64,000 bases of DNA from Neptunicella sp. (GTDB lineage Bacteria; Pseudomonadota; Gammaproteobacteria; Enterobacterales; Alteromonadaceae): assembly GCF_048268085.1 (NCBI RefSeq), contig NZ_JBLWWF010000012.1:19909-83908 (forward strand), given 5' to 3'. The notes under the pieces are model-generated. The model saw only the letters and a list, made by a program, of their open reading frames with translations, searched no databases and was not told the origin of the DNA. The translations under genes were made by a program, and so were the position numbers. This document shows, in pieces, positions 31,143-53,626 of the stretch (position 1 is its first letter; each line of letters opens with the position of its first letter).

Positions 31143-32057
31143 TTATTCTGCCTGTTGTGATGCCAACGCTTTTTCAACAAATTTAGTAGTTTGTTCATCA
31201 CCGCGTATAAACATTTTTTGTTTTGACACATCGACAATTTGATCAATATGAATTGCCACATTTTCTGCAGTTTGTTGTTCCGGAGGCAAGTAAATACCGT
31301 CCGTTTCAAAAATTTGTGTGGCCGCATATCCACCCGCACCAGCACACAATATCAATCGAGAAGGCGATTCATCGCTAGCTAAATAGACCAGTCCAGCAGA
31401 AACACTCTCGACTGTGAGCACTTCACTGGCTTGCTGATCTATTAATCCATCCATCATTCGGGTGGCAGCACATGGCGATATCGCATTCACTTTGATACCG
31501 TACTTCTTCCCCTCAATGTCCAACACATTCATTAGACCGACGACGCCCATTTTTGCGGCACCGTAATTAGATTGTCCAAAATTGCCATACAGCCCGGAAG
31601 ACGATGTTGTCATAATGATTGTGCCCTGTTGCTGTTCGCGCATGGTAGGCCACACTGCTTTAGAACAATTCGCAGCACCCATTAAATGCACATCCACCAC
31701 CAACTTAAAATCATCAAGGCTCATATTGGCAAAACTTTTATCCCGTAAAATCCCGGCATTGTTAACCAAAATATCGATCCTTCCCCATTGGGCTAACGTA
31801 TCAGAAACCATTTGATTGACTTCTTCAATGCTGGTGACATTAGCGCCATTAGATATGGCTTCACCACCAGCGGCCTTAATTTCCTTTACGACTTGTTCCG
31901 CGGCAGACAAGTCTCCACCTTCGCCACTGACACTACCGCCTAAATCATTGACAACCACTTTTGCTCCACGTGCCGCTAAGGCTAAAGCATGAGAGCGACC
32001 AAGACCGTTACCAGCTCCTGTAACAATAGCGACTTTTCCTTCAAATCTAATGTTCAT
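31143..32057 (-). CDS. SDR-family 3-hydroxyacyl-CoA dehydrogenase (MFE-2 dehydrogenase-domain-like)
   Basis: FEGKVAIVTGAGNGLGRSHALALAARGAKVVVNDLGG... and YGAAK (YxxxK) closely resemble the N-terminal dehydrogenase domain of type-2 multifunctional enzymes. Confidence 0.82.
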   Translation of the reverse strand: MNIRFEGKVAIVTGAGNGLGRSHALALAARGAKVVVNDLGGSVSGEGGDLSAAEQVVKEIKAAGGEAISNGANVTSIEEVNQMVSDTLAQWGRIDILVNNAGILRDKSFANMSLDDFKLVVDVHLMGAANCSKAVWPTMREQQQGTIIMTTSSSGLYGNFGQSNYGAAKMGVVGLMNVLDIEGKKYGIKVNAISPCAATRMMDGLIDQQASEVLTVESVSAGLVYLASDESPSRLILCAGAGGYAATQIFETDGIYLPPEQQTAENVAIHIDQIVDVSKQKMFIRGDEQTTKFVEKALASQQAE

Positions 32058-32234
32058 ACTGCAACCTTTATCGTTGTTCCCCCTTCACTATTGAGCGAGG
32101 AATTTAATTTCACTTGCCTATGGCAATCTCAGCCGATGTCTTCCTGTGATTACTGTTTTTCGACAATCACCTAGGTCGTTTTTCAATCAAACATTCTTCA
32201 ATTTAGTTGTACTCGATACTGAATTTAAAAATAT

Positions 32235-32268
32235 TGTGACAACATTTTATATTATCACACAGTATAAT
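32235..32268 (+). promoter_or_regulatory. imperfect dyad TGTGACAAC-N7-ATTATCACA followed by a consensus TATAAT
   Basis: The arms at 32235-32243 and 32251-32259 match 7 of 9 as an inverted repeat. tataat is at 32263-32268. It lies in the divergent SDR/TonB-receptor intergenic region. The same half-site, tgtgataat, occurs at 30858-30866. Confidence 0.3.
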
Positions 32269-32436
32269 GTTAATTATTGCAATAGTTTATGTTGACATTT
32301 ATTATAGTTTTGTTAAAAGTGTTACAGCTTTGTTGCTTTTAGTTGTAAGCCAAACACAGTGAACAACGCATGTACTTGCAGATGCTTTCGGGTTTCTTCG
32401 GGTTCAGGCCCACGACGGGATAGAGGAGAACTAACA

Positions 32437-34602
32437 ATGATAAGTCTTACCAAGAATAAAAAAGCGAAATTAAGCTTATTGGTGCTTTCTATGGGATTGA
32501 GTACACACTCAATTGCACAGGAAGAAGAAGTTGAATCCAAAAAGCCGAAAGAACATACCTTAGAAACCATTGAAGTCACTGCAGAACGACGTGTAGAAAA
32601 TATTCAAAAATCGCCGCTCGCTGCGTCAGTAATACAGGGTGATGAAATCAGCAAATTGGGGATTACGAAAGTAGATCAGCTACAATTTGCCATGCCCTCA
32701 GTGGTCGTCAATAACTTTGGCCAAGGCGTTGATTTTAATATCCGCGGTATTGGTAAGGCCGAGCACAATACACAAACAACTACCGGGGTTATAACCTATC
32801 GCGATGGTGTTGCAACCTTTCCTGGCTATTATACCGCTGAGCCTTACTATGACATCGCCAGAGTAGAAGTCTTACGTGGCCCGCAAGGAACATTCGCAGG
32901 CCAGAATGCAACCGGGGGGGCCGTATTTGTAAATTCGAACAATCCTGAAATTGGTGGCACTTATTCCGGTTATCTGCTCGGACAAGTCGGCAATTATCGT
33001 GACGTTGCTACACAAGGAGCGTTGAATATTCCAATTAGTGACACGTTCGCTGCTCGTATAGCGTTTAATACGGAAAACCGTGACAGTTTCTACGATATAG
33101 AAGGCCCTTACACCGGTGATGATGGTATTAGTATGCAAAGTGGAAGACTCAGTTTGCTTTGGGAACCCAGCGATTCACTATCAGTACTATTTAAATCTGA
33201 CTACAATTATCAGGATTTGAGTGCTTATCCCACTGACCCTGTCAATTCGCCAAATGATATGTTTGAAACCACGGCGAACGCAGACTTGGCGGCCCGAGAT
33301 AAATTTTCACGTTCAGTACTAAAAATTGATTATACCTTTGCCGGCGGTACCATTCTGCGCTCAGTTTCGGGCTATCAATCTGGTAAAAGCCTGTTTAAAG
33401 CCGATCTTGATGGCACGAGTGTTGGTATCAGGACTTTTCGAGATGAAGTAGAAGAGCGAATTTTCTCGCAAGAGCTTAACCTGATTTCACCGGATAATGA
33501 CGGCTTTAACTGGATCCTTGGTGCGTACTTTCAAAATGATGATATTACATTCCCACCAGGTCAGTTCGTAACAGGGTTACCTGAGGGTAATCCGGCTACC
33601 GAATACCGACTGGAAGGCGAAAACCCCAAAGAAACCAGAGCCGTTTTTGGTCAGGTCACCCTAGATTTATCTGAAGGTCTAGAATTGCAAGTAGGATTAA
33701 GACATTCAAGAAGCAATACCGAAAACCAAATTGATATCGTTCAATATGGCCTTCCTCTAGAGAGTTACCAAAAAGCGGAATACTCCAAGACCACAGGTAA
33801 AGTATCGTTAAACTGGGATGTTAATACCGACCACTTTCTATATGCCTTTGCGGCAACGGGCTACAGACCTGGTGGACTTAACGTTAATGTAGGGCTCGGT
33901 TTGCCTGAACCTTTTGATCAAGAAGAAGTCACCAGTTATGAATTCGGTTGGAAAGCGTCATGGCTCGACGATCACTTGCGTACTCAATTGACCGGCTTCC
34001 ATAATGACTATGATAATTTCCAGGTCAGAATTGGTTATCCGGATATTCCTACCTTCGCATTTCAGCTGAATACACCTGAAACCACCAAGATAACCGGTAT
34101 GGAAGCGCAACTTCAGGGCGTATTTGGGGATTTCTCAATTAATGCAGGTATGTCGATAATGCGCAGCAAATTAGGCGAATTTTATGCGACAGATCCACGT
34201 GTTCCTGCACCGGGTACGACTTGTGACCCAATAAGTGGACCAGAAACCATCTCATGTATTGCTTTAGAAGGGCGTGACCAGACCTATGCGCCTGACGTTA
34301 CTTTCAACTTTTCCATGCAGTATGAGTTTATGTTGGATAAAGGAACACTCACTCCTAGATTAAACTTCGGCCATGTATCCGAACAGTGGGCAACTTTATT
34401 CCAGAATGAAGCACTGGGAGATCGAATCGAAAGTCGAAATATAATGGGTGGTCAAGTTGCCTGGCAATATCAAGACTGGACAGTGACCCTGTACGCCACC
34501 AACTTGACAGATAGACGCTATGTTTCCGCTATCAATTCTGGCCTGCGACTGGCCGGCTTACCACGTCAGTATGGTTTGCGCGTGATGAAAACATTTTTCT
34601 AG
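32437..34602 (+). CDS. TonB-dependent outer-membrane receptor
   Basis: ATG at 32437 is preceded by aggaga (32424-32429). Signal peptide ...STHSIAQ, plug (IEVTAERR.ENIQKSP...VEVLRGPQGTFAGQNATGGAVF) and terminal ...VMKTFF. The ORF-track start at 32359 adds an implausible Cys/Arg-rich extension. Confidence 0.9.
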   Translation: MISLTKNKKAKLSLLVLSMGLSTHSIAQEEEVESKKPKEHTLETIEVTAERRVENIQKSPLAASVIQGDEISKLGITKVDQLQFAMPSVVVNNFGQGVDFNIRGIGKAEHNTQTTTGVITYRDGVATFPGYYTAEPYYDIARVEVLRGPQGTFAGQNATGGAVFVNSNNPEIGGTYSGYLLGQVGNYRDVATQGALNIPISDTFAARIAFNTENRDSFYDIEGPYTGDDGISMQSGRLSLLWEPSDSLSVLFKSDYNYQDLSAYPTDPVNSPNDMFETTANADLAARDKFSRSVLKIDYTFAGGTILRSVSGYQSGKSLFKADLDGTSVGIRTFRDEVEERIFSQELNLISPDNDGFNWILGAYFQNDDITFPPGQFVTGLPEGNPATEYRLEGENPKETRAVFGQVTLDLSEGLELQVGLRHSRSNTENQIDIVQYGLPLESYQKAEYSKTTGKVSLNWDVNTDHFLYAFAATGYRPGGLNVNVGLGLPEPFDQEEVTSYEFGWKASWLDDHLRTQLTGFHNDYDNFQVRIGYPDIPTFAFQLNTPETTKITGMEAQLQGVFGDFSINAGMSIMRSKLGEFYATDPRVPAPGTTCDPISGPETISCIALEGRDQTYAPDVTFNFSMQYEFMLDKGTLTPRLNFGHVSEQWATLFQNEALGDRIESRNIMGGQVAWQYQDWTVTLYATNLTDRRYVSAINSGLRLAGLPRQYGLRVMKTFF

Positions 34603-34617
34603 TTAACGACGCACATT

Positions 34618-34660
34618 GCAGCCAATTCAGCTGAATTGGCTGCGTATCCTTTTATTTTTA
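34618..34660 (+). terminator. intrinsic terminator after the TonB receptor gene
   Basis: 13-bp perfect palindrome arms gcagccaattcag/ctgaattggctgc (34618-34643) followed by a T-rich ccttttattttta. Confidence 0.65.
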
Positions 34661-34673: not shown

Positions 34674-36269
34674 ATGCAATCATATTCACTTACCGTAGAT
34701 AAGTTCCTTGACCATGCTGCTAAGTGGCTAGGAACACAAGAAGTTGTTTCTGTCCATCATGGAACAGAAGTGACGCGTATTAACTATGCTCAATTGAGAC
34801 AACGCAGTAATCAGTTTTCAGGGGCACTGCGGGCAATTGGCCTTAACTTTGGAGACAGGATTGGAACACTGGCCTGGAATACCCAGCACCATATGGAAAT
34901 GTACTACGCCACGATGGGAATTGGATTGATATGTCACACGCTTAATCCTCGCTTTAGTGCTAGTCATCTTGCCACTATTATCAATGAGGCTGAGAACCGT
35001 GCGCTAGCAGTTTCGGCCAATCTATTGCCCTTATTACAAGAACTACTGCTACTCTGCCCATGTATCGAACATGTCATTCTGATGGATGAAGATGATGTTG
35101 AACTCGCCGCTATCAATACACAAAGTGTGAGTGTTTGGCGTTATGAAGAGCTGTTAAGTAATAAAGGTCAACCTGTTGAATGGGGTGAATTCGATGAAAA
35201 CACCCCCGCGGGGCTATGTTATACGTCGGGTACAACCGGCAAACCCAAAGGCGTACTTTATACACATCGCTCAAACTATTTACATACACTTTGCACCTTA
35301 CAAACCGGCGGTATCGCGTTGAGAAGTAACGACGTTCTGCTGGTTGCCGTACCAATGTTTCATGCCAATGGCTGGGGTTTACCCTTTTCTGCCCCGGCAA
35401 TTGGTTCAAAAATGGTTTTGCCTGGTCGCAATGCAGATGGCGCAAGTTTAGCGACATTAATGCGTAATGAACGCGTAACAGTAGCAGCTGCAGTACAAAC
35501 AGTATGGTTAGGACTAGTTGAACATCTCGATGAATGTGGCGGTGAGTTACCTGATCTGGAGCGTATTTTGATAGGTGGATCAAAATGTCCTGACGCATTA
35601 ATCAAACGTATTGAAGATCGCCTTGGCGCACGTGTTCAAACCAGTTGGGGAATGACTGAGCTTTCCCCTCTAGGCACGGTGACAGCACTATTCGAGTCCA
35701 ATACAGACTCTCGTACTGCAGGCCGGCCCCTTATGGGAATTGATCTAAAACTCACAGATGCTCAGGGCAATACTTTAGAAGATCAACGCGGTGTGGTTGG
35801 ACACTTAAAAGCAAAAGGCGCGAGCGTGGTAGATCGCTATTATCAAGCCGAGCATGACTCACTAGATGAGCAAGGCTATTTTGATACAGGTGATTTGGCG
35901 ATGATCGATGAACGAGGTCACTTGAGTATTTGTGGCCGTTCAAAGGATCTGATTAAATCAGGTGGGGAATGGATAAACCCTGCAGAAATAGAAGATATTA
36001 TTGGCCAAATTGACTCTGTTGGACAAGTTGCAGTCATCGGAAAGCCGGATGAAAAGTGGGGAGAGCGGCCGATACTCATCGTTGAAGCCAATGCTGGTGA
36101 AGTGATTGACTCGAGTACTTTATTGAATCAATTACGTGGAAAAATACCTGACTGGTGGATACCCAAAGACGTTATAATGATTGATACTATGCCATTAGCA
36201 GCAACCGGCAAAATAGACAAACTTTGGTTAAAAGGTAATTACAAAAGTTTAAATCTTTCATCGATTTAG
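34674..36269 (+). CDS. long-chain fatty-acid--CoA ligase (AMP-dependent synthetase family)
   Basis: AMP-binding motif YTSGTTGKPKGV, plus GYFDTGD and the KSGGEWI region. Length of about 530 aa. Confidence 0.88.
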   Translation: MQSYSLTVDKFLDHAAKWLGTQEVVSVHHGTEVTRINYAQLRQRSNQFSGALRAIGLNFGDRIGTLAWNTQHHMEMYYATMGIGLICHTLNPRFSASHLATIINEAENRALAVSANLLPLLQELLLLCPCIEHVILMDEDDVELAAINTQSVSVWRYEELLSNKGQPVEWGEFDENTPAGLCYTSGTTGKPKGVLYTHRSNYLHTLCTLQTGGIALRSNDVLLVAVPMFHANGWGLPFSAPAIGSKMVLPGRNADGASLATLMRNERVTVAAAVQTVWLGLVEHLDECGGELPDLERILIGGSKCPDALIKRIEDRLGARVQTSWGMTELSPLGTVTALFESNTDSRTAGRPLMGIDLKLTDAQGNTLEDQRGVVGHLKAKGASVVDRYYQAEHDSLDEQGYFDTGDLAMIDERGHLSICGRSKDLIKSGGEWINPAEIEDIIGQIDSVGQVAVIGKPDEKWGERPILIVEANAGEVIDSSTLLNQLRGKIPDWWIPKDVIMIDTMPLAATGKIDKLWLKGNYKSLNLSSI

Positions 36270-36344
36270 CCAAGTTGACTGTCTGATTGTTAGTATTTAG
36301 GATTAAGCCATATCTCCGTCGATCATAATAAGTTGGATAACAAC

Positions 36345-37013
36345 ATGACACAGGAATCACCAAGGCGCTCAAGGCGCAGTAAAGCTGAGCAACGAGCTGA
36401 AAGTATAGAGCTAATCCTTGATGAAGCAGAATACCTGTTTTCCAAAAATGGACTTTATGGTGTCACACTGCGAGATGTCGCCAAACGCGTTGGTATACAT
36501 ACAACATTAGTGCACTATTACTTCAAGGATAAGCAAAATTTATTTGAAGAAGTATTTTCCCGTCGCGCAGGTGTCACCAGTAGTCGCCGTATGGCTGCGT
36601 TGCAACAATATGAAGTTGAGGCCGGTGATAATCCAACCGTGGAAGGGGCGTTGCACGCATTTCTCGATACCGACTTAGACCTGTATTACGACGGTGGTGA
36701 AAACTGGATGAATTACGCCGCCTTTTGCGCGCGGGTCAGTAATACGCCTGAAGGTGCCGAACTAATGGATAAACATTTTGATCCCGTCGTTCTTAAGTTA
36801 ATTGGGATTTTGAAAAAGGCTTTACCAGATTATTCAGATGAAGATATTTTCTGGGGGTATCATTTTGTCACCAGTTCGCTAATGAGTACGTTAGCCAGAA
36901 CTGGCCGTATCGATCGGTTATCTGATGGCGTATGCCATTCAGATGATTTCCCTGCCGTTAAAAAACGGATAGCCAAGTTTATGTCAGCGGGATTTTTGGC
37001 TCTGAAAGAGTAA
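36345..37013 (+). CDS. TetR/AcrR family transcriptional regulator
   Basis: N-terminal HTH (ILDEAEYLFSKNGLYGVTLRDVAKRVGIHTTLVHYYFKDK). Start placed at ATG 36345; the ORF-track TTG is at 36333. Confidence 0.85.
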   Translation: MTQESPRRSRRSKAEQRAESIELILDEAEYLFSKNGLYGVTLRDVAKRVGIHTTLVHYYFKDKQNLFEEVFSRRAGVTSSRRMAALQQYEVEAGDNPTVEGALHAFLDTDLDLYYDGGENWMNYAAFCARVSNTPEGAELMDKHFDPVVLKLIGILKKALPDYSDEDIFWGYHFVTSSLMSTLARTGRIDRLSDGVCHSDDFPAVKKRIAKFMSAGFLALKE

Positions 37014-37072: not shown

Positions 37073-37981
37073 TTAATGTCGACTGAAAAAATCCCAAAAT
37101 ACTTCAGCCACATTAAGCGAGGTCGCCCCATAGGTAATATGAGGTGCCTCTAACTCGCAATAACTTACAGATACACTACATCCCGTATATTCTCGACACC
37201 AACTGGTACCAGAAGAAAAGGTTTCAACATAAGAACTTGGATAACCACTACAACTATTTCGCGATGCGTAAATGGCCATCGTATCCGCGGTGCTAAGCAT
37301 ATATTCACCGGCTACATCAGATGATCCACCAATAGGCTGGGTGGTATCGTTTCTACCGTGCATGTACAAGATAGGCCTTACATAAGCAGGATTACAATTT
37401 TCCCAGGATTCAGACAACGCAGCGGAGGTAGTTGCATAGGCGTCGAATTCTTCTGGTGCCTCACAAAGAACCCGATGCCCCATATAAGATCCATTTGATA
37501 AGCCTGTTAAATAGTTTTTATTAATATTTAGTTTTGCAGCGACATCATTTTTCACGGCCACCAACAACGCAACATCGTCCCAATTCTGTGAAGATGGCGT
37601 CCCACAGCAACCAGGAGAGATATAAGAGTCAGAGCCATTAAAGCCTTTGGCTAACCAACCTCCTCCTTTTGCAGGACCACCTCGCGGATAAGCGACCGCA
37701 AAGTTTTCAATATCACTTAACTCATACATTCCTGATAGATTACGCTGATTTTCTGGCGTATGTGCAAAGCCATGCACATCAACAACTAATGCAATTGGAG
37801 TACCGTCATAACCATCGGGGACATGCAGTAAATACTCCCGCGAACGGCCATCCACCGTGATAGAAAATTCGCAATCAACTCCAGCCTGAATGGTACAGGG
37901 TGCAGCTATTGCGGATGATAAAGGGAATAAACTACCAACCAATGCAATAAAGGTTAGTAATGCCTTAGGTAGTGCTTTCAT
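37073..37981 (-). CDS. secreted esterase of the PHB-depolymerase/feruloyl-esterase-like alpha/beta hydrolase family
   Basis: Signal peptide (...LSSAIAAP), VVDVHGF...AYPRG and the nucleophile elbow GLSNGS, with many Cys residues. ATG 37981 is preceded by the SD aaggtga. An alternative GTG is at 37990. Confidence 0.68.
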   Translation of the reverse strand: MKALPKALLTFIALVGSLFPLSSAIAAPCTIQAGVDCEFSITVDGRSREYLLHVPDGYDGTPIALVVDVHGFAHTPENQRNLSGMYELSDIENFAVAYPRGGPAKGGGWLAKGFNGSDSYISPGCCGTPSSQNWDDVALLVAVKNDVAAKLNINKNYLTGLSNGSYMGHRVLCEAPEEFDAYATTSAALSESWENCNPAYVRPILYMHGRNDTTQPIGGSSDVAGEYMLSTADTMAIYASRNSCSGYPSSYVETFSSGTSWCREYTGCSVSVSYCELEAPHITYGATSLNVAEVFWDFFSRH

Positions 37982-45269: not shown

Positions 45270-45296
45270 AAAATTACTCTGGTTAAATTTATCTGC

Positions 45297-46067: not shown

Positions 46068-46119
46068 AAAATTACCTTAATAAAAACCAAGTCAGGGCAT
46101 CACGCCCTCAACGTGTGTA

Positions 46120-47304
46120 TCAGGCTACTTCAAATAACCCGGCCGCCCCCATGCCTCCACCAACACACATGGTCACCACCACATATTTAATCCCTCGACG
46201 CTTACCTTCAATCAATGCGTGAGCGACCAACCTTGAGCCTGTCATTCCGTAGGGATGACCAACTGAAATACCACCACCGTTGACATTATAAATACTTGGG
46301 TCGATGCCCAAGTGATCACGACAATACAAGGCTTGAACAGCAAAGGCCTCATTGAGCTCCCACAAGCCAATATCGTTGACCGTTAAACCATGTTGCTTGA
46401 GCAACTTAGGGACCGCATAAATAGGACCAATGCCCATTTCTTCAGGAGCATTACCTGCGACCATCATGCCTCGGTATATCCCCAGCGGCTGTAATCCACG
46501 TTGTTCCGCAAGTTTGCTTTCCATCACAACCACTGCCGAAGCGCCATCCGAAAGCTGGCTGGCGTTACCTGCTGTGATCACACCATTGTCAACCACGGGA
46601 TTTAAACCTTGCAGGCTTTCATAAGTGGTTGAAGGACGATTCCCCTCATCTTTGCTGAGTGTCACCTGTTCAAAGGATTGTTGATTAGATTGCTTATCAA
46701 TAATGACTTTGGTGGTGCTGAACGGCACAATTTCGTCGTCAAACTTCCCGGAGGCTTGAGCCGCCGCTGTCCGCTGCTGAGATTGCAATGCGTATTGGTC
46801 CTGTGCTTCCCGCGATATATTGTATTTTTTTGCCACATGCTCTGCGGTGAGCAACATCGGCATATAAGCGTGCTGAGCATGGTTAATGACATTGGGATCT
46901 TGAGACTTTCCGACCCAATCAAAATAGGCTTGCTGGATTTCAGAAATGTTTTCCTGCCCACCAGCGACAACCACATTCATGCCATCAACAATAATTTGTT
47001 TGGCTGCAGTGGCAATGGCCATTAAACCCGACGAACATTGGCGATCAATAGTTTGCCCAGAAACGGTCACCGGCAATCCCGCGGCGAGTGACGCCATGCG
47101 GCCTATATTCATTCCCGCACTGCCACTGTTTAGTACCGAACCAATGATGACATCGTCAATTTCTGATTTATCGATGCCTGAGCGTTCAACGGCATGTTGA
47201 ATGGCATGGGCCATTAATGTAGGCGATTTGGTATTGTTAAACGCGCCTCGGTAAGCTTTACCAATCGGGGTACGTGCAGTGGAAACGATAACGGCTTCTT
47301 TCAT
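46120..47304 (-). CDS. acetyl-CoA C-acyltransferase (thiolase)
   Basis: [18 protein letters not shown], the active-site QCSSGL, NEAFA, and [10 protein letters not shown]...CVGGGMG. Confidence 0.93.
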
Positions 47305-47352
47305 TGTTCCTGTTCCTTGTCGATTTTATTTGTGTAAAGGGATAACACAAAG

Positions 47353-49482
47353 TCAGTGTGATTCATTATTTATGTATGTTTTGAACGATTTGCCCTCGGC
47401 TACCAATTTTTCTAGCAGGGGGGCCGGTGTAAACCATTGTCGCCCATATTCTCCCAACTCAATTTGGTATCGGTTAATAGCACTGAGGATGTTGTCCAGA
47501 CCAATTTCATCCGCATATTGCATCGGCCCACCACGAAAAGTGGGGAATCCGTATCCATTACAATAAACCGTATCGATATCGCTGGAACGACATGCGATCC
47601 CTTCATCAAGCACCTGAGCCCCTTCGTTTACTAGCATGTAGAGGGTGCGCTGCAAAATTTCCTGATCCGGGATTTGACGCTGTTTAATTCCATACTGTTG
47701 AGCCAGTTGTGCAGCTAACTGAGTAACCTGTGTGTTGGCGCGCTTGTCGCGGCCATCATAAAGATAAAATCCCCGCGCTGTTTTTTGTCCGTGGTGACCC
47801 AGCTCATATAGCTTGTCACAAATAGCGGCATAACTGGGATCACGAGCGTAAAACGCTTGTTTATTACCCTGACGGGTCAGATAGCCAACATCAATTCCGG
47901 CCAGATCGATCATGCTGGGAAAACCCATTGCCATACCAAATTGACACAGAACATTGTCAATTTGCTCGGGACTGGCACCTTCAAGTATCAAACGTGACGC
48001 TTCACGGGCATAAGGTTCTAACATACGATTACCGATGAACCCCCAGCATACTCCAGCCACGACCGGTACTTTGTTAATACGCTGGGCCATACTAATCATG
48101 GACACAATGACATCATCGGCGGTGTGTTTGCCACGCACAATTTCCAGCAAACGCATCACATTGGCCGGACTAAAAAAGTGTAAACCGATCACATCGGACG
48201 GACGTTGCGTTACCGCGGCAATGTCGTTTACATCGAGGGTGGATGTATTGGTTGCCAATATCGCACCGGCCTGGCAGATTTCATCAAGCTTTTTAAACAC
48301 ACGTTGCTTAATTTGCATCTCTTCAAAAACGGCTTCGATAACCAGATCGGCGTCCTGAATGTCATTATAATCTGTGCTAACCGCAAGCTTTGACAAGCAC
48401 TGTTCCATCTGTGCTTCTGTCAATTTTCCTTTTTGTACACTAGCCAGATAATGACTTTTAATCGTATTAAGGCCCCGCTCTAGTGCTTGTTCGCTCAGAT
48501 CCAGTATTAGGGTAGCGATACCGGCACTGGCAAAATTCATTGCAATGCCTCCTCCCATCGTGCCGGCGCCAATCACCGCCACTTTATTTATGTCACGACT
48601 GGCGGTGCCAGGCTTGATACCCGGTACTTTTTTGGCTGCTCGTTCAGCAAAAAAGATATGTTGCTGAGCTCTGGCTTGGGGTGATTGTATGCACTCCTGA
48701 AAAAGCGAGGCTTCGAGTTGTAATCCTGCTGAAAAAGGTAATTCACAAGCGGCCTGTACACATTGAATAATCTTTTCTGGCGCCATAAATCCGCGACTAC
48801 GACGGGCAATGCTGGCGCGAAAACCACTGAAAAAATTGTCTGGCAGTTGGCTTGTATCAACCTTTAGCCTGGCACAATTTCGTAATACTATATCGGCATC
48901 GATCAAGTGCTGCGCATAACCGATTGCCATATCAATAAAATCACTTTCGCCAGCATGAACGCAATCGACAATCCCTGCAGCTAACGCTTTTTCTGCCGAA
49001 ATGGGGGTGCCCGAGATCATCATTTGCAACGCCAGTTCTGCACCCGCAATGCGTGGTAAACGCTGAGTTCCCCCGGCTCCGGGCAAAATGCCCAGTTTGA
49101 CTTCAGGTAGACCAAATTGTGCTTGTGGTAGTGCAATAATAAAGTCACAGGCGAGTGTCAACTCAAAGCCACCACCCAGTGCCATGCCGTTGACCGCCGC
49201 AATAACCGGTTTGCTTGAGTCCTCTATTACATGGCATAAATCCGGCAGACTGGGAGAAGCCAGTGCCTGCTCGGTACCAAATTCACTAATATCCGCCCCG
49301 GCACAAAAAACATTCGCCGTTGAAGCGATAACAATAGCTTCAACTTTGCTGTCTTTACTGGCTTGCAGGTAAGCGTTAAAAATCGCTGCCCGTAGCCTTT
49401 GGCCTAATCCGTTTACCGGTGGACTCTGTAAACTGATTACAGCAATATTTTCTTCAACAGAGTAATTAATCAGCGCCGTCAT
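47353..49482 (-). CDS. fatty-acid oxidation multifunctional protein (enoyl-CoA hydratase / 3-hydroxyacyl-CoA dehydrogenase, FadB/FadJ-like)
   Basis: An N-terminal crotonase fold (FCAGADISEF, AAVNGMALGGGFEL) and a C-terminal NAD-binding HCDH domain (VAVIGAGTMGGGIA). Start set at ATG 49482 (MTALINY...). Confidence 0.92.
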   Translation of the reverse strand: MTALINYSVEENIAVISLQSPPVNGLGQRLRAAIFNAYLQASKDSKVEAIVIASTANVFCAGADISEFGTEQALASPSLPDLCHVIEDSSKPVIAAVNGMALGGGFELTLACDFIIALPQAQFGLPEVKLGILPGAGGTQRLPRIAGAELALQMMISGTPISAEKALAAGIVDCVHAGESDFIDMAIGYAQHLIDADIVLRNCARLKVDTSQLPDNFFSGFRASIARRSRGFMAPEKIIQCVQAACELPFSAGLQLEASLFQECIQSPQARAQQHIFFAERAAKKVPGIKPGTASRDINKVAVIGAGTMGGGIAMNFASAGIATLILDLSEQALERGLNTIKSHYLASVQKGKLTEAQMEQCLSKLAVSTDYNDIQDADLVIEAVFEEMQIKQRVFKKLDEICQAGAILATNTSTLDVNDIAAVTQRPSDVIGLHFFSPANVMRLLEIVRGKHTADDVIVSMISMAQRINKVPVVAGVCWGFIGNRMLEPYAREASRLILEGASPEQIDNVLCQFGMAMGFPSMIDLAGIDVGYLTRQGNKQAFYARDPSYAAICDKLYELGHHGQKTARGFYLYDGRDKRANTQVTQLAAQLAQQYGIKQRQIPDQEILQRTLYMLVNEGAQVLDEGIACRSSDIDTVYCNGYGFPTFRGGPMQYADEIGLDNILSAINRYQIELGEYGRQWFTPAPLLEKLVAEGKSFKTYINNESH

Positions 49483-49539
49483 GAATAAGCCTTTTGATTG
49501 GAATGATGAGGTGTGGTTAAACAACAAAAGAGCAACATA

Positions 49540-51345
49540 TCAAAACCACTCGTCCTGCATTTGGTAGGGTATCTGGTTGAATCCTTTTAATAACGCTACT
49601 TGGTGGTAGATTTTGGGTAACTCCCATTGCATGTAATAGCGTGCCGCTTGCAACTTGCCGCGATAAAAACGGTGGTCATTTTCATGCAGCGTTTTGGTGG
49701 TCAAGGCTTCAGTGGCTTTTAATGCCTGTCTAAGCCATATCCAACTGGCGACAACACAGCCAAACACATCCAGATAAACCGTCGCATTAGCAAGCGTTAA
49801 ATCAGGTGATTCGGCTAATTCGGCCGACAATATGCTGGTTACATCATTTAGCGCGTTTAGCGCCTTTGACAGTGCAAAGGCCAGAGGCGCGGTTTGATCC
49901 AGATTATTTGCCTTGTTGATTGTGGTTAAAATTTCATTGCTCAATAACGTTAAGCCCTGGCCATTATTGACAATGACTTTTCGTCCCAGCAGGTCGAGGC
50001 CATGAATGGCTTCAGTGCCTTCATGAATCGGATTTAGGCGATTGTCGCGGTAGTATTGCTCCACCGGATATTCCCGAATGTAGCCGGAACCACCCAATAC
50101 CTGAATGGCCAATTCATTGGCTTTTAAACAATATTTAGCGGTCCAGGATTTCACTATTGGTGTAATAAGATCAAGTATTAAACCAGCCCGCTGGCGCTGC
50201 TGTTGATTGTCGGCAGTATGTATATCTTCAAATAACGAGCTGGCGTAAAGACACATCGCCAGTGCCCCTTCACTGTAAGCCTTTTGTGCTAGCAGCATAC
50301 GGCGCACATCAGCATGTTGAATAATATTTACTTGCCTGGATTGTGGGTTTTTATTTGAAGGTAAACGCCCTTGCGGTCTCTCCCGAGCAAAATTGAGTGA
50401 GCAGTTAAAACCTTGATAACCTAAAGCGGCAGCGCCAAGCCCAACACCAATCCGCGCTTCATTCATCATTTGAAACATATAAAAAAGGCCGTGGTGTGGT
50501 TCCCCAATCAAATACGCTACTGCCCCTTGTTTTTCGCCGAAATTTAATACGGTGGACGTAGTATTTCGATACCCCATTTTATGCAGTAAACCGGCCAGCG
50601 AAACATCATTGCGTTGCCCCAATGTGCGATCGTCATTAACCAGATATTTGGGACATATAAAAAGAGATATACCTTTAGTACCTGCGGGCGCACCTTCTAT
50701 TTTTGCCAACACCAGATGAACAATATTTTCAGTGATATTTTGATCACCACCTGAAATAAACATTTTTTGGCCAAAGAGTCGATAACTGCCATCCTCGGCC
50801 AATTTTGCCGTGGTTTTAATATCAGCAAGTGCAGAACCTTGGCCAGGTTCAGTTAACGCCATAGTACCTGCGTAAATTCCTGCCTGCATTGGGGGGAGAA
50901 ACAAGGACTTCTGTTGTTCGCTTCCAAATGCATTAATCAAGTTTGCCGCACCAATACTAAGAAAGGGATAACCGGTTGTTGCGATATTGGCGGCCGAGAA
51001 ATAAGCCATACAGGCACGCAGGATAACCTCGGGAAGCTGCATCCCGCCCTGCTCAAAGTCATAGTGTGCAGCTAAAAAACCGGCTTCAGCAAATGCATCC
51101 CAGGCTTCTTTCGTTTCTGGCAACATGGTGAGATTCTGTCCATCAAATGACGGTTCGTTGGCATCCCCCATACTGTTGTGATTAGCAAAATATCTTTCCG
51201 CAATAGTGCAGGCAGTAGCTAAAGTGGCATCAAATATTTCCCTCGAATGCTCTTGATAACGCGGTCGATGCAACAGTCCCTCAGTGTCGAGGAATTCGTA
51301 GAGTAAAAATTCAATATCGCGAAGATTTAACAGTTTTTGGTTCAT
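49540..51345 (-). CDS. long (about 600 aa) FadE-type acyl-CoA dehydrogenase, paralog of 43473..45269
   Basis: Same architecture (MALTEPGQGSALAD, ENIVHLVLAK, YRDNRLNPIHEGTE). The N-terminus MNQKLLNLRDIEF parallels MQSYQSPLRDIQF of the paralog, so ATG 51345 is preferred over GTG 51363. Confidence 0.9.
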   Translation of the reverse strand: MNQKLLNLRDIEFLLYEFLDTEGLLHRPRYQEHSREIFDATLATACTIAERYFANHNSMGDANEPSFDGQNLTMLPETKEAWDAFAEAGFLAAHYDFEQGGMQLPEVILRACMAYFSAANIATTGYPFLSIGAANLINAFGSEQQKSLFLPPMQAGIYAGTMALTEPGQGSALADIKTTAKLAEDGSYRLFGQKMFISGGDQNITENIVHLVLAKIEGAPAGTKGISLFICPKYLVNDDRTLGQRNDVSLAGLLHKMGYRNTTSTVLNFGEKQGAVAYLIGEPHHGLFYMFQMMNEARIGVGLGAAALGYQGFNCSLNFARERPQGRLPSNKNPQSRQVNIIQHADVRRMLLAQKAYSEGALAMCLYASSLFEDIHTADNQQQRQRAGLILDLITPIVKSWTAKYCLKANELAIQVLGGSGYIREYPVEQYYRDNRLNPIHEGTEAIHGLDLLGRKVIVNNGQGLTLLSNEILTTINKANNLDQTAPLAFALSKALNALNDVTSILSAELAESPDLTLANATVYLDVFGCVVASWIWLRQALKATEALTTKTLHENDHRFYRGKLQAARYYMQWELPKIYHQVALLKGFNQIPYQMQDEWF

Positions 51346-51366
51346 TCGGATGTTCAACACCAAATA

Positions 51367-51388
51367 AGTAAGGGTATACCCCTACTTT
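51367..51388. promoter_or_regulatory. 22-bp near-perfect palindrome in the divergent beta-oxidation/sensor-kinase promoter region
   Basis: aagtaagggta|tacccctactt pairs at 10 of 11 positions. The core taagggtata recurs at 51433-51442. Confidence 0.35.
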
Positions 51389-51471
51389 ATGTAATTCACT
51401 AATCTTGATCAAGTCTAAAAATGTAATAATATAAGGGTATATACTTAATTATTACCTTCTGCGGGATTCTA

Positions 51472-52980
51472 TTGACTAAAAAAATAAGAGAAATCAATAC
51501 GTTGGATCTTAGTGATGAGCGTTACCGATTTTTAGTTGAACAGTCAGGAGATTTGATCAGTACGCATCGCCCTGGCGACTGGGCTTATACTGCGGTCAAT
51601 CCCGCGGTGAAAGTCGTTTGTGGTTATCAGCCTGAAGAGATCATGGGTAAACCGGCTTATGATTATTTTCACCCGGATGATGCTGAAGCGATGAAAAACA
51701 AGCTAATTCCGGCAATTTATCGACATGGTATTCGCACCTTTCGTTACCGACACCGACATAAGAATGGTAAATATTATTGGGTCGAGAGCACCCACCGTTC
51801 AATCCGGGATGACAATAGTGGCGAATTACAAGAAATCATCGCGGTAACCCGGGATATCAACGCCCAGGTCGAAGCCCAGGAAATGAGTCAACGTTTAGCC
51901 AAAGTAGTGGAGGCATCGTCGGATCTACTGGTTTTTTGCAACCAGAGTTATCAAATCACTTATATGAATCCTTCTGCGTTGCGATTTTTTGATGTCGCCA
52001 AACAATCGACACCAATAGATTTGAGTCATTTATTTTCCGCCCAAAGCGTCCAGAAACTGACAGCATTGGCCGCAGACATTGCCCAGTCCAGCGACAACTG
52101 GCGCGGTAACTTACCGATTAAATCCAGCCAGTTCTCTGAACGATTCATTGTGTTGCAAGAGCTATTAATCCACTCCCAGCAAAGTACCAATGAGACCGGT
52201 GATCACTATGTTTTCATTTTTAAGGACATTAGCGCTCAAAAGCGGGCAGAACAGGAAAAACATCAACATCAGGCAGAAATTGCCCATGCATCCAGATTGA
52301 TGACAATGGGAGAAATGGCATCCGGATTGGCGCACGAAATTAACCAGCCATTGGCCACGACGCTAAATTATGCGCGCGGAGCGTTAAGGCATCTAGAGCA
52401 TGGTACGTTAGATGATATTGAGAAAGTCCGCTCCGTGTTTGATAATATTGTGCGCCAAACCCAACGAGCCGCAGATATTGTCAAGCGGTTGAGAACGTTG
52501 GTAAAAAAAACGCCTTATCAACGTTCCAAAGTTTCGCTCAATGTTCTATGCCGGGACGTGGTATTTTTTCTGCAACATGAACTACAGGATAGCCAAACCA
52601 CGGTTCAACTGGACTTGGCTTCGGATATACCAGAAATTGATGCCGACAACGTGCAGATTGAACAAGTGCTAATCAATCTGTTACGTAACGCAATAGATGC
52701 TTATAGCAACATTTCAGCTGAAGAAAAGTGTGTTCATATCCAAACCCGGTATGATGCGCAAACAGTATCACTCTTGGTGACAGATCACGGGCGAGGCATA
52801 GCTGACAGTTTGATCCAGTGTTTATTTGATCCCTATGTCAGTGATAAACCAACGGGTTTAGGGATGGGATTATCGATTTCCCGTACCATTATTGAAGCCC
52901 ATGGTGGTGAGATTTCCGTTAAATCCGACAAAAGTACATTCACCACTTTTCAAGTGATTTTGCCGCGTCCCATATCATGA
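51472..52980 (+). CDS. PAS-domain sensor histidine kinase (FixL/DctS-like, cytoplasmic)
   Basis: Two PAS-like segments, an H-box SGLAHEINQPL, and an ATPase with N (LINLLRNAIDA) and G boxes (DHGRGI, GLGMGLSIS). There are no TM segments. TTG start. Confidence 0.85.
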   Translation: MTKKIREINTLDLSDERYRFLVEQSGDLISTHRPGDWAYTAVNPAVKVVCGYQPEEIMGKPAYDYFHPDDAEAMKNKLIPAIYRHGIRTFRYRHRHKNGKYYWVESTHRSIRDDNSGELQEIIAVTRDINAQVEAQEMSQRLAKVVEASSDLLVFCNQSYQITYMNPSALRFFDVAKQSTPIDLSHLFSAQSVQKLTALAADIAQSSDNWRGNLPIKSSQFSERFIVLQELLIHSQQSTNETGDHYVFIFKDISAQKRAEQEKHQHQAEIAHASRLMTMGEMASGLAHEINQPLATTLNYARGALRHLEHGTLDDIEKVRSVFDNIVRQTQRAADIVKRLRTLVKKTPYQRSKVSLNVLCRDVVFFLQHELQDSQTTVQLDLASDIPEIDADNVQIEQVLINLLRNAIDAYSNISAEEKCVHIQTRYDAQTVSLLVTDHGRGIADSLIQCLFDPYVSDKPTGLGMGLSISRTIIEAHGGEISVKSDKSTFTTFQVILPRPIS

Positions 52981-53005
52981 CAATTGACAAAAAAGAGTAT
53001 ATGCC

Positions 53006-53626
53006 TTGAATACAATGACAATTTATATTGTGGACGATGATGCCGCCTTTCGAGAGTCTCTGGTTTGGTTGCTGGAAGGAGCTGGCCATATTGTTAGTGC
53101 ATATGAAAGTGGCGAGGCTTTCTTACACGCTTGTACAGACAATAAAGATTCAATACAGGGATGTTTGTTACTTGATGTCCGCATGAACGGAATGAGCGGG
53201 CTGACCTTGCAACAAGAGTTAAACCAACGCGCTATTACACTCCCGGTCATTATCGTCACCGGCCATGCAGATGTCGCTATGGCAGTACAAGCGATGAAAA
53301 ATAAGGCCGTTGATTTTATTGAAAAACCCTTTGATGACGATAAATTATTAAGGTTGATTGACCGGATACTCGGTGATTTATCACAACAAAGTACTATAGA
53401 GAAACAACAAACACAGCATATTGAACGATGGCGTTCATTGACCAAACGGGAGGAACAGGTGGCTCAGTTGGTCATTGCTGGGCGAGTAAATAGAGAAATT
53501 GCTGAACAACTCGGTATTAGTATCAAAACCGTTGAAATTCATCGCAGTCGTGTCATGAGCAAAATGCAGGCGCGGAATATTGCGGAATTAATAAAACAAC
53601 ACGTCGATCTTCAGCCCTCTATATAA
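53006..53626 (+). CDS. FixJ/LuxR(NarL)-family response regulator
   Basis: Receiver domain (IYIVDDD...LLLDVRMNGMSG...TGHADV) plus a C-terminal GerE HTH (LTKREEQVAQLVIAGRVNREIAEQLGISIKTVEIHR). Either the TTG at 53006 (SD aagag upstream) or the ATG at 53015. Confidence 0.88.
   Translation: MNTMTIYIVDDDAAFRESLVWLLEGAGHIVSAYESGEAFLHACTDNKDSIQGCLLLDVRMNGMSGLTLQQELNQRAITLPVIIVTGHADVAMAVQAMKNKAVDFIEKPFDDDKLLRLIDRILGDLSQQSTIEKQQTQHIERWRSLTKREEQVAQLVIAGRVNREIAEQLGISIKTVEIHRSRVMSKMQARNIAELIKQHVDLQPSI

Follow-up and report, generated by a model that had tools for sequence, protein, structure and literature searches.

In the polysaccharide utilisation loci of Bacteroidota, as in the "CUT" loci known from Xanthomonas and Caulobacter, a TonB-dependent receptor, hydrolases, an MFS importer and a regulator lie together. 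In E. coli, LplT/Aas serves lysophospholipid uptake and re-acylation by pairing an MFS lipid transporter with an AMP-forming acyl-activating enzyme, and the known route for 3-hydroxybutyrate leads through 3-hydroxybutyrate dehydrogenase to acetoacetate. SAR86 receptor genes adjoin esterases, lipases and beta-lactamase-fold proteins, an arrangement read as uptake of amphipathic lipids above the porin limit, likewise on genomic inference only (PMC3358033). A TonB receptor for a hydrophobic or amphipathic substrate is not unprecedented; a preliminary description of the present DNA considered its use for a hydrophobic one the unusual part. Judged by its sequence, the locus of the marine bacterium Neptunicella sp. 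analysed here (31143-53626 of the window, that is, of the whole 64-kb stretch of DNA studied) seems to serve the uptake of a bulky ester across the outer membrane, its periplasmic cleavage and the oxidation of the acid set free.

The grouping of these genes is not due to chance. The locus is quite probably an enlarged copy of a widespread, TetR-controlled "import, hydrolyse, activate" class without earlier characterisation, whose core comprises a TonB-dependent receptor, a Spinster-like MFS transporter, a secreted type-B carboxylesterase, an acyl-CoA ligase and TetR, often joined by an MFE-2-type (3R)-hydroxyacyl-CoA dehydrogenase and a thiolase (Table 1). Gene identities were obtained from Pfam and NCBIfam scans, PDB relatives by bit score and fold comparison, and the scans recovered every gene of the preliminary description at its coordinates.

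Table 1. Genes and predicted regulatory elements of the locus and its leftward extension (positions in the window)
Feature	Position	Strand	Basis or remark
HupE/UreJ-2-like permease	23776-24774	-	Pfam
PpiC-type protein	24774-25787	-	Pfam
DUF3604 hydrolase	25687-27687	-	Pfam
TonB-dependent receptor, 1016 aa	27742-30792	-	plug and barrel domains
Predicted TetR operator, 6-nt spacer (ATTAAC ATGAGA GTGAGT)	30831-30848	.	matrix scan
MFE-2-type (3R)-hydroxyacyl-CoA dehydrogenase (SDR, 304 aa)	31143-32057	-	divergent from 721-aa receptor operon
Degenerate operator-like sequence (TATCAC-N10-GTTAAT overlapping GTTAAT-N6-AATAGT)	32253-32286	.	divergent SDR/721-aa receptor promoter
TonB-dependent receptor, 721 aa	32437-34602 (ORF as listed 32359-34602)	+	profile scan
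AMP-forming acyl-CoA ligase, DmdB/Thermus long-chain ligase type	34674-36269	+	Pfam, PDB relatives
TetR-family repressor (TetR_N and TetR_C_30)	36333-37013	+	Pfam
Cys-rich single-domain esterase, 305 aa, PHB-depolymerase family	37073-37990	-	NCBIfam, fold match
24-nt element, copy of kinase-promoter element	38151-38174	-	161-184 nt upstream of PHB-depolymerase-like gene
Type-B carboxylesterase CE547 (COesterase)	38476-40119	-	Pfam
Spinster-like MFS transporter	40116-41495	-	profile scan, PDB relatives
Predicted TetR operator, 10-nt spacer (GTTAAC ACACGTGATA GTGAAT)	41644-41665	-	before MFS gene
Type-B carboxylesterase CE551 (COesterase)	41739-43394	-	Pfam
Beta-oxidation operon (ACAD607, FadB/FadJ-type, thiolase, SDR, ACAD598 in transcription order)	43473-51363	-	
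ACAD598, large acyl-CoA dehydrogenase with Acyl-CoA_dh_C	43473-45269	-	Pfam
SDR of beta-oxidation operon	45297-46067	-	profile scans
Thiolase	46120-47304	-	profile scans
FadB/FadJ-type enzyme	47353-49527	-	profile scans
ACAD607, large acyl-CoA dehydrogenase with Acyl-CoA_dh_C	49540-51363	-	Pfam
Divergent promoter region (22-bp palindrome 51366-51387, 24-nt element 51420-51443)	51366-51443	.	sequence comparison
PAS histidine kinase	51472-52980	+	Pfam/NCBIfam
FixJ/NarL-type response regulator	53006-53626	+	Pfam/NCBIfam

Comparative genomics, proposed earlier as a check, finds the core in three classes, the Alpha-, Beta- and Gammaproteobacteria. Its genes keep their synteny in over 25 loci of other taxa, at 52-84% identity in Lysobacterales, Pseudoxanthomonas, Steroidobacteraceae, an Alcaligenaceae MAG, Alteromonas, Shewanella, Hyphomonas and Phenylobacterium. 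Among 20 loci from 14 genomes, picked by TetR similarity alone, the genes adjoining TetR encode a receptor (18/20), a Spinster-like MFS (13/20), a type-B esterase (13/20), a ligase (9/20), a (3R)-dehydrogenase (4/20) and an ACAD607-type dehydrogenase (3/20), and a genome may hold up to four TetR copies. The (3R)-dehydrogenase and thiolase are absent from many alphaproteobacterial loci. Unbiased neighbour clustering of 26 loci revealed no further family in more than three of them, no recurrent enzyme that would handle a separate alcohol or head-group moiety, and no recurrence of phosphoesterases, glycosidases or sulfatases. The core operon (38476-41495, minus strand) begins with the MFS gene, which overlaps that of CE547 by 4 nt, and the MFS-esterase order is kept in most loci.

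Of all proteins of the system TetR is conserved most strongly, with 65-84% identity in other classes; its relatives at E<=1e-40 number 5,747, the best 120 of which are at least 80% identical. Twelve loci have a TetR of 61% identity or more; in 10 of them a predicted operator with the consensus ATTCAC-N6/10-GTGAAT is found with at most one mismatch, in every case immediately 5' of a receptor or MFS gene, the expected number of such sites being about 0.09 per 20 kb. With matrices built solely from sites in other genomes, the window left out, the MFS and 1016-aa receptor promoters rank first in the 64 kb. The MFS operator, the window's top match at 28.1 bits (null maximum 14.2), overlaps a -35-like hexamer, with a promoter-like site at 41664-41636, and its footprint is also found in G023. 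The receptor site lies 39-56 nt 5' of the start codon and is the top match for its matrix at 21.1 bits (null maximum 17.0); comparable sites lie before the orthologous receptor genes of L053 and L076. The operator-like element at the divergent SDR/721-aa receptor promoter, recognised by visual comparison with an alignment of the orthologous G023 and L053 promoters, is weak, as it falls outside the top 12 matches of either matrix. The conserved predicted operator at receptor and MFS promoters supports co-regulation of the core across three proteobacterial classes. The earlier proposal of an ester utilisation locus with the logic of a polysaccharide utilisation locus is borne out by the conservation of this receptor/MFS/secreted carboxylesterase/ligase/TetR unit.

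The true start of the 721-aa receptor is probably the ATG at 32437, since translation from there provides a signal peptide; its orthologues (52-68% identity) in Lysobacterales, Pseudoxanthomonas, Steroidobacteraceae, an Alcaligenaceae MAG and Alteromonas lie invariably within the core. The left boundary originally drawn at 31143 proved too narrow, as the 1016-aa receptor beyond it carries a predicted operator and replaces the core receptor elsewhere: orthologues with 69-76% identity hold the receptor slot in Shewanella sp. A25 (L076), Phenylobacterium (L085) and Hyphomonas (L086), and one sits within the locus of Alteromonas sp. D210916BOD_24 (L053). It is a predicted second outer-membrane importer of the system. 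The DUF3604/PpiC/HupE group directly downstream (23776-27687, minus strand) is probably co-transcribed with it and is tentatively included in the system; the receptor-DUF3604 order recurs inside the core locus of the same Alteromonas and Hyphomonas.

The 22 kb, initially presented as one unit, comprise at least two predicted regulatory modules. The beta-oxidation operon, the PAS kinase/FixJ pair, the second type-B esterase and the PHB-depolymerase-like esterase are, to judge by sequence comparison, genome-specific additions: none has a TetR operator according to the operator matrices in the 64-kb window, and a search of three congeners found no ACAD607 homologue. The flanks of the core are wholly different in Neptunicella sp. 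and a congener. The operon appears to be under separate control of the adjacent kinase and regulator; no membrane segment was found in the kinase, which is therefore predicted to be cytoplasmic, and no paralogue of the pair in the genome. The palindrome and the 24-nt element of their promoter region have a common core, TAAGGGTATA, and the second copy of the element, identical at 21 of 24 positions (0 matches in 100 shuffles), links the kinase promoter to that of the accessory esterase. The operon, in which the core thiolase is here embedded, is the genome's third such set, with fadBA-like and fadIJ-like pairs on other contigs and FadL encoded elsewhere; FadL and the two other FadB/thiolase pairs argue that the locus is not the housekeeping fatty-acid route. 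Both its acyl-CoA dehydrogenases are about 600 aa long, and these FadE-type enzymes resemble Pseudomonas and mycobacterial ones. The suggested coupling of the locus to beta-oxidation holds insofar as a set of the same type (ACAD607-type, SDR, FadB, thiolase) adjoins the core in at least one unrelated genome (L091), with ACAD607-type genes beside the core in L098 and L100, but not as an integral feature, the operon here being an addition without the TetR operator.

Each of the three esterases bears one hydrophobic segment at its N-terminus, closed by an AXA-type sequence, in agreement with the signal peptides first reported, and on the evidence of these peptides the enzymes would be periplasmic. 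CE551 and CE547 are paralogues (72% identity; GESAG, HGG and EDCL kept in both). The CE551 gene closes the beta-oxidation operon, 78 nt beyond the preceding gene, and no consensus terminator or promoter was found in between. Relatives of the type-B enzymes include pyrethroid and fumonisin hydrolases. The 305-aa esterase, with the nucleophile motif G-L-S-N-G, gives nothing in Pfam at E<=0.001 and 77.7 bits with the NCBIfam "extracellular type 1 scl-PHA depolymerase catalytic domain" (cut-off 150); its top fold matches are the Lihuaxuella PHB depolymerase structures 9byu/8daj (E 1e-13, TM 0.59), in a fold family that also takes in feruloyl and acetyl-xylan esterases. PHB depolymerases normally bear a substrate-binding domain, which this protein does not have. 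An orthologue (76%) follows directly after the MFS-esterase pair in Shewanella sp. A25.

The MFS transporter has as its best solved relative the Hyphomonas Spinster homologue 6e8j (232 bits; human SPNS2, about 80 bits). The ligase scores 430 bits with DmdB 6ihk, 356 with 1ult and 223 with the acyl-ACP synthetase 8hsy, and remains under the NCBIfam cut-offs for DmdB (524 vs 822, equivalog) and the long-chain ligase subfamily. The best solved relatives of the 304-aa SDR are MFE-2 (3R)-hydroxyacyl-CoA dehydrogenases (2et6, 393 bits; 1gz6, 222 bits), and its orthologues (50-75% identity) adjoin the TetR or receptor gene in many loci; that of L072 adjoins a MaoC R-hydratase. The one MaoC protein of the Neptunicella sp. 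genome is encoded outside the locus.

From protein families and gene order, the following mechanism may be proposed. One or both receptors would draw into the periplasm an amphipathic ester whose size or scarcity puts it out of reach of porins, and there the Sec-exported type-B carboxylesterases would cleave it; the Cys-rich esterase probably acts earlier, extracellularly. The released acid or partly deacylated product would cross the inner membrane through the Spinster-like MFS, be converted to a CoA ester by the ligase and be shortened by the (3R)-dehydrogenase and thiolase, with the two large acyl-CoA dehydrogenases, FadB-type enzyme and SDR of the added operon completing beta-oxidation in this genome. 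TetR would repress the receptor and MFS promoters at its predicted operator until released, presumably, by a pathway product.

The earlier statement that the substrate cannot be read from the sequence is upheld. Our leading guess, plausible yet still short of probable, is (R)-3-hydroxyalkanoate oligomers, that is, breakdown products of polyhydroxyalkanoates, or similar hydroxy-acid polyesters. The R-specific dehydrogenase and the thiolase are the core's only oxidative enzymes, and with the ligase they would form a complete route for (R)-3-hydroxy acids without acyl-CoA dehydrogenase or hydratase; the absence of a recurrent alcohol or head-group enzyme fits a homo-oligomer of hydroxy acids. The predicted PHB-depolymerase-like fold of the accessory esterase also speaks for this guess, as do the beta-lactamase-fold proteins that flank the core or that esterase in other loci and are read as family-VIII esterases, one enzyme of this type having published polyesterase activity (PMC13533575). 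Against it count the missing binding domain and feruloyl/acetyl-xylan kin of the 305-aa esterase; the degenerate operator of the 721-aa receptor and the exporters among the Spinster relatives (PMC9440201) count against the proposed mechanism. Given the loci devoid of dehydrogenase and thiolase, the hydroxy-acid argument covers a subset only, and the MaoC proteins of L072 and of this genome mean that the R-hydroxyacyl-CoA could derive from ordinary enoyl-CoA.

The same mechanism would serve an acyl lipid (intact polar lipids or lysolipids of plankton and bacteria, triacylglycerols, wax esters or biosurfactants), with the receptor importing the lipid, the esterases freeing fatty acids, the MFS moving lysolipid or fatty acid, and ligase and beta-oxidation burning the chains; this substrate we consider rather unlikely. 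Lysolipids are among the cargo of Spinster relatives, the bacterial homologue is presumed to have a lipophilic native substrate (PMC9440201), and SAR86 receptor loci with lipid-degrading enzymes have been read as serving polar lipids (PMC3358033). Cross-class TetR conservation would suit an effector present everywhere, a fatty acid or acyl-CoA for instance, TetR is distantly related to PsrA (2fbq, 46 bits; NCBIfam PsrA model, 47.8 bits vs an equivalog cut-off of 300), the added set with FadE-type dehydrogenases is complete, and L058 holds a lysophospholipase-like hydrolase. However, head-group enzymes do not recur in the 26 loci, free fatty acids are already served by FadL and need no MFS, the core's sole oxidative enzyme is R-specific, and the ligase is closest to short/medium-chain DmdB-type enzymes.

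That TetR and the MFS constitute drug or xenobiotic efflux, with esterases inactivating toxic pyrethroids, carbamates or plasticisers beside an unrelated receptor and ligase, is quite improbable. Efflux systems classically pair a TetR with an MFS, a Spinster homologue of mycobacteria provides drug resistance (PMC9440201) and the type-B family holds the hydrolases mentioned above; yet receptor and ligase are conserved in the locus equally with the MFS, the predicted operator is located at receptor promoters, and ligase, dehydrogenase and thiolase point to assimilation. Even less probable is an ordinary fatty-acid degradation operon placed by chance beside unrelated receptor and esterase genes: the differing flanks, the missing ACAD607 in congeners and the operon's own regulator pair without a TetR operator would fit it, but the core synteny, the core thiolase inside the operon and the esterase copy at its end, the similar genes beside the core in L091, L098 and L100, and the shared 24-nt element all contradict it. 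Iron/siderophore uptake with esterase-mediated iron release, or catabolism of DMSP-derived methylmercaptopropionate, is scarcely credible: the 721-aa receptor's best NCBIfam model is a siderophore receptor family and its sole PDB match the pesticin/yersiniabactin receptor, and ligase and ACAD607 match DmdB and DmdC (322 bits), but the scores lie under curated cut-offs (124 vs 223.5 bits for the siderophore family, and that for DmdB given above), control is by TetR, the locus has no periplasmic binding protein, ABC importer, DmdA or DmdD, and esterases, receptor and MFS play no part in the DMSP route.

Like polysaccharide utilisation and CUT loci, the locus brings together, under joint control, a receptor, hydrolases of the periplasm or cell surface, a predicted MFS importer of the inner membrane and a dedicated regulator, and several paralogous loci may occur per genome; unlike them, it has carboxylesterases instead of glycoside hydrolases, CoA ligation as the first cytoplasmic step, a TetR repressor and no SusD-like lipoprotein. 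With SAR86 it shares receptor genes beside esterases, whereas the SAR86 sets are variable (patatin, rhodanese/beta-lactamase, oxidoreductase), and a conserved TetR/Spinster-MFS/type-B esterase/ligase core or an operator was not defined there (PMC3358033). HnSpns of Hyphomonas neptunium (6e8j; PMC9440201), the transporter's closest solved relative, is a paralogue and not an orthologue: the related MFS of the L086 Hyphomonas locus scores 219 bits against it. PsrA-type repressors of fatty-acid degradation in Pseudomonas and Vibrio are likewise TetR-family repressors of acyl-CoA metabolism genes, with weak similarity, a different operator and, here, a regulon centred on receptors and transporter. 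Extracellular PHA depolymerase/oligomer hydrolase systems resemble the locus in a secreted esterase of PHB-depolymerase fold (8daj/9byu) and an R-specific downstream route, and the further esterases could serve as oligomer hydrolases; the 305-aa esterase scores under the family cut-offs, and the known 3-hydroxybutyrate route is replaced by a CoA ligase and an MFE-2-type dehydrogenase. We know of no TonB-dependent uptake of hydroxyalkanoate oligomers. As in LplT/Aas, an MFS is paired with an AMP-forming enzyme, here one resembling acyl-ACP synthetases (8hsy), but the acyltransferase domain is absent, and the receptors, esterases and degradative enzymes argue for catabolism rather than recycling.

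Every gene named in the preliminary description was found at the coordinates it gave (see the table), and the true start of the 747-aa receptor reading frame is probably the ATG at 32437, which would give a product of 721 aa. A 304-aa short-chain dehydrogenase gene (SDR304) is opposed to an operon of receptor, ligase and TetR genes, with which the 305-aa esterase gene converges from the far side. After a 485-nt gap come the MFS gene and that of the 547-aa type-B carboxylesterase (CE547), overlapping by 4 nt, and after a further gap of 243 nt those of the 551-aa type-B carboxylesterase (CE551), the acyl-CoA dehydrogenase ACAD598, SDR256, a thiolase, FadB and the acyl-CoA dehydrogenase ACAD607, all on the minus strand and spaced by 12-78 nt. 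The beta-oxidation operon and the kinase-regulator pair are divergent. Each of the three esterases has a single hydrophobic segment, at its N-terminus, and the PAS kinase has none.

Features of the ester-utilisation region and its surroundings (positions in the window)
Feature	Position	Strand	Remark
1016-aa receptor with the trio behind it	23776-30792		DUF3604, PpiC-like, HupE-like
1016-aa receptor	27742-30792	-	
TetR operator, matrix match	30831-30848		before 1016-aa receptor; 21.1 bits, null maximum 17.0
Perfect 19-bp palindrome	30881-30899		TTGCACAAACTTTGTGCAA
SDR304	31143-32057	-	
721-aa receptor	32437-34602	+	
305-aa esterase	37073-37990	-	
24-nt element	38151-38174		upstream of 305-aa esterase
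CE547	38476-40119	-	
Spinster-like MFS	40116-41495	-	
TetR operator, matrix match	41644-41665		before MFS gene; 28.1 bits, null maximum 14.2
CE551	41739-43394	-	
Beta-oxidation operon	43473-51363	-	ACAD598 to ACAD607
Palindrome and repeat	51366-51443		core TAAGGGTATA
24-nt element	51420-51443		before kinase gene
Kinase-regulator pair	51472-53626	+	
Glutathione S-transferase	53730-54419		

Comparison with other genomes separates a conserved core from genes added around it. The closest congener carries thiolase, SDR304, receptor, ligase, TetR, SDR, esterase and MFS genes at 60-81% identity, in genomic surroundings wholly different from those of the window and without the second esterase, the 305-aa esterase, the kinase pair or the beta-oxidation operon; no ACAD607 homologue was found in the three congeners searched. 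Using the 721-aa receptor as a query, a colinear (SDR)-receptor-MFS-esterase-ligase-TetR-SDR304-thiolase operon was recovered at 52-83% identity from Steroidobacteraceae, an Alcaligenaceae MAG, Lysobacterales, Pseudoxanthomonas yeongjuensis and an Alteromonas. The most conserved member is TetR: a search gave 5,747 relatives at E<=1e-40, and identity is at least 80% throughout the top 120, among them proteins of Phenylobacterium, Hyphomonas, Steroidobacteraceae and Shewanella. When loci were drawn by TetR similarity alone from about 400 sampled genomes of the phylum, 14 were positive, with up to four copies each, and among the 20 loci fetched the regulator gene neighboured a TonB-dependent receptor in 18, a Spinster-like MFS transporter and a type-B carboxylesterase in 13 each, an acyl-CoA ligase in nine, the (3R)-dehydrogenase in four and an ACAD607-type dehydrogenase in three. 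Unbiased clustering of neighbours over 26 loci recovered the same families, any other family occurring in at most 3 of the 26. In one locus (L091), thiolase, ACAD607-like, SDR and FadB genes flank the core, as they do in the window; the whole beta-oxidation operon was rejected as a conserved cassette, only FadB-thiolase-ACAD-SDR recurring, in two loci (L074 and L075). No orthologue of either receptor was scored among the best two candidates per genome in 400 class-level and 300 order-level genomes, figures that are floors rather than absences.

The core also has a recognisable operator. Aligned promoters share a footprint, ATTCAC-N6 or N10-GTGAAT, lying over the -35 box. Allowing no more than one mismatch, 10 of the 12 loci with a TetR of 61% identity or higher have one or two copies, each immediately ahead of the receptor or MFS gene, against a chance expectation of about 0.09 sites per 20 kb, and the footprint is absent from all loci in which TetR is only 42-50% identical. 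A plain consensus scan of the window was undiscriminating (10 matches vs 6.4 expected), so that matrices built solely from other genomes' sites were required; run over the 64 kb, these gave their best matches before the MFS gene and before the gene of a 1016-aa receptor, while the promoter of the 721-aa receptor bears only a degenerate version (32253-32286). Several genomes (G1114, G1080, G1096 and G1138) hold two to four paralogous TetR-receptor-MFS loci, and the more distant paralogues, with TetR at 42-50% identity, lack the operator and often the esterase too, which suggests a locus family with differing substrates.

Regulation of the added genes appears to follow other signals. Run over the whole window, the matrices place no operator ahead of the beta-oxidation operon, CE551, the kinase gene or the 305-aa esterase gene. 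The gap between the ACAD607 and kinase genes holds a palindrome and a repeat, and a 24-nt element ahead of the kinase gene has a second copy, matching at 21 of 24 positions, upstream of the 305-aa esterase gene (0 in 100 shuffles); neither the TTAACAT motif nor the 10-mer TAAGGGTATA alone is enriched. Since the added genes lack the TetR operator and share these other signals, the region contains at least two regulatory modules. In our reading, both the palindrome and the 24-nt element look like heptamer-type sites of the NarL/FixJ family, and the 206-aa response regulator may control a small regulon that includes the 305-aa esterase. The initial interpretation of the region as a single ester-utilisation locus thus stands for the conserved, TetR-controlled core, and does not extend to the beta-oxidation and esterase genes, an extension added in this genome and apparently under kinase control.

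The left boundary of the locus had been drawn too tightly, missing a second receptor, of 1016 aa, that carries the TetR operator. Orthologues of this receptor (69-76% identity) belong to core loci elsewhere: in Shewanella sp. A25 the orthologue is the core receptor, the order being MFS-esterase-305-aa-esterase, receptor-TetR-ligase, SDR304-thiolase and a second esterase; in Phenylobacterium and Hyphomonas it occupies the core receptor's position, and in Alteromonas it lies between TetR and esterase. A DUF3604 hydrolase follows the 1016-aa-type receptor in the window, in Alteromonas (L053) and in Hyphomonas (L086), the pair lying inside a core-type locus in the latter two, and may be an additional exported hydrolase of the ester system in some lineages. 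Behind the receptor in the window, DUF3604 forms a trio with PpiC-like and HupE-like genes. The promoter of the 1016-aa receptor also contains, 33 nt upstream of the TetR operator, the perfect palindrome TTGCACAAACTTTGTGCAA, which is unlike the TetR site, so that a second regulator may act there.

Both type-B enzymes are full-length COesterase proteins (PF00135; 350.7 and 355.2 bits, cut-off 27), 72% identical to each other, with PDB 8WDM as the best esterase match. The GESAG nucleophile elbow, the HGG oxyanion motif and the EDCL disulphide motif are present in both, a check made at the level of motifs. The 305-aa esterase is more divergent and falls under all curated family cut-offs: it has no Pfam match at E<=0.001, Esterase_PHB (PF10503) included, and scores 77.7 bits against NCBIfam e_dPHAscl_type1 (cut-off 150) and 32 bits against TIGR01840 (cut-off 107.85). 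PF10503 is carried by its distant homologues, the G-L-S-N-G nucleophile motif is invariant in its alignment, and its structural model (pLDDT 78.9) is closest in fold to a single-domain Lihuaxuella PHB depolymerase (9byu/8daj, E 1e-13, TM 0.59), with feruloyl and acetyl-xylan esterases, which share that fold family, ranking next. It consists of the catalytic domain alone and lacks the linker and polymer-binding domain that true extracellular PHB depolymerases possess. The family is small (24 matches), and among eight other contexts a homologue lies within the core in one (Shewanella), adjoins a receptor-TetR-ligase set in one, a 626-aa type-B esterase in one and a 625-aa beta-lactamase-fold protein in two. 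An aldo-keto reductase gene without counterpart in the window lies near the homologue on three unrelated contigs, one from Shewanella sp. A25 (L076) and two metagenomic (L077 and L080).

Judged by sequence, SDR304 is of the MFE-2 (3R)-hydroxyacyl-CoA dehydrogenase type, with predicted R-stereospecificity; its nearest solved relatives are MFE-2 dehydrogenase domains (2et6, 393 bits; 1gz6, 222; 1zbq, 221), against only about 150 bits for FabG-type proteins. Orthologues of SDR304 (68%) and of the thiolase (73%) also cluster in an unrelated gammaproteobacterium (L072; G310:C42, 1407-10272) with a MaoC R-hydratase, a thioesterase, an Fe-alcohol dehydrogenase and two acyl-CoA dehydrogenases, and without receptor or esterase, in what looks like a split MFE-2-type, putatively R-specific beta-oxidation cluster. 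A glutathione S-transferase gene borders the acyl-CoA dehydrogenase cluster of L072; in the window, such a gene lies 103 nt after the response regulator gene. DmdB (430 bits) and, after it, a Thermus long-chain ligase (356 bits) are the nearest matches to the ligase, which lies under both equivalog cut-offs; its identification as DmdB was rejected (524 bits vs an NCBIfam equivalog cut-off of 822). Likewise, the large acyl-CoA dehydrogenases, closest to Pseudomonas-type FadE, DmdC and mycobacterial FadE5, were not accepted as DmdC (6ijc, 322 bits, below Pseudomonas-type FadE, 348 bits). The multifunctional enzyme is a single chain with ECH, 3HCDH_N and 3HCDH domains and, with 494.6 bits for FadB and 488.8 for FadJ against cut-offs of about 870, appears to have the FadB/FadJ architecture while being the orthologue of neither. 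TetR exceeds the gathering scores of both TetR_N (47 bits) and TetR_C_30 (111.3 bits). Bacterial Spinster homologues serve as structural models for the human SPNS transporters, and the window's MFS protein is, by its matches, Spinster-like rather than of other MFS families: HnSpns (6e8j) leads the PDB matches with 232 bits, followed by SPNS1 (90), SPNS2 (about 80) and then DgoT (74). The idea that HnSpns is orthologous to the transporter of the locus was rejected; according to PMC9440201, it is not known what the solved bacterial Spinster homologue naturally transports.

The conserved parts would fit a route in which an ester is imported with TonB-derived power and hydrolysed by the exported esterases, the product being taken up by the MFS transporter, ligated to CoA, oxidised as its CoA ester by the R-specific dehydrogenase and cleaved by thiolysis. 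Because FadL and two further FadB/thiolase pairs are encoded elsewhere in the genome, the locus is not the general fatty-acid route. Esters of (R)-3-hydroxy acids, in the simplest case polyhydroxyalkanoate oligomers, are favoured as the substrate on three grounds: such an acid has a complete path through ligase, (3R)-dehydrogenase and thiolase that calls for neither an acyl-CoA dehydrogenase nor a hydratase, both of which the core lacks; the 26 clustered loci show no recurrent enzyme that would act on a separate alcohol or head group; and polyesters are known targets of hydrolases of the accessory kinds (PMC13533575). Against this reading, the dehydrogenase and thiolase are missing from many alphaproteobacterial loci, the 305-aa enzyme has no polymer-binding domain, a MaoC hydratase stands beside the dehydrogenase orthologue in L072, and one MaoC protein is encoded elsewhere in the window's genome; acyl lipids are a serious alternative. 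A tblastn search (E<=1e-3) with the L072 hydratase itself matched nothing in this genome or in those fetched loci that were searched. It is tempting, if distinctly speculative, to regard the family as widespread, undescribed ester-utilisation loci that take up (R)-3-hydroxyalkanoate oligomers through TonB receptors, hydrolyse them in the periplasm and process the monomers by ligase, (3R)-dehydrogenase and thiolase under one conserved TetR and operator. Such oligomers are breakdown products of bacterial storage polyesters, and if they are indeed the substrate, the import of hydroxy acids would be the first physiological role assigned to bacterial Spinster-like transporters.

Where the substrates are polysaccharides, TonB-dependent utilisation loci are well understood; those for esters, lipids and polyesters have, to our knowledge, been deduced solely from genomes. 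The receptor, Spinster-like MFS transporter, type-B esterase, CoA ligase and TetR with its precise operator define a compact, conserved and testable unit whose relatives number in the thousands among particle-associated and soil Proteobacteria. The identity of its substrate would fill a gap in our picture of how Gram-negative bacteria take up polyester and lipid breakdown products, with bearing on carbon cycling and bioplastic degradation, and would supply a natural function for bacterial Spinster homologues. A TonB receptor for a non-polar substrate, singled out at first as the unusual part, is in principle not new, as SAR86 carries receptor genes beside lipid-degrading enzymes, read as polar-lipid uptake (PMC3358033); no description of the conserved gene combination or its operator was found in the literature. 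The resemblance to a Bacteroidota-type polysaccharide-utilisation locus is one of logic only, there being no SusD-like gene and the SusC/RagA signature reaching 20 bits on the 1016-aa receptor vs a cut-off of 46. The locus thus has its logic in common with polysaccharide-utilisation and CUT loci, but differs from them in its esterases, CoA ligase and TetR regulator and in the absence of SusD.
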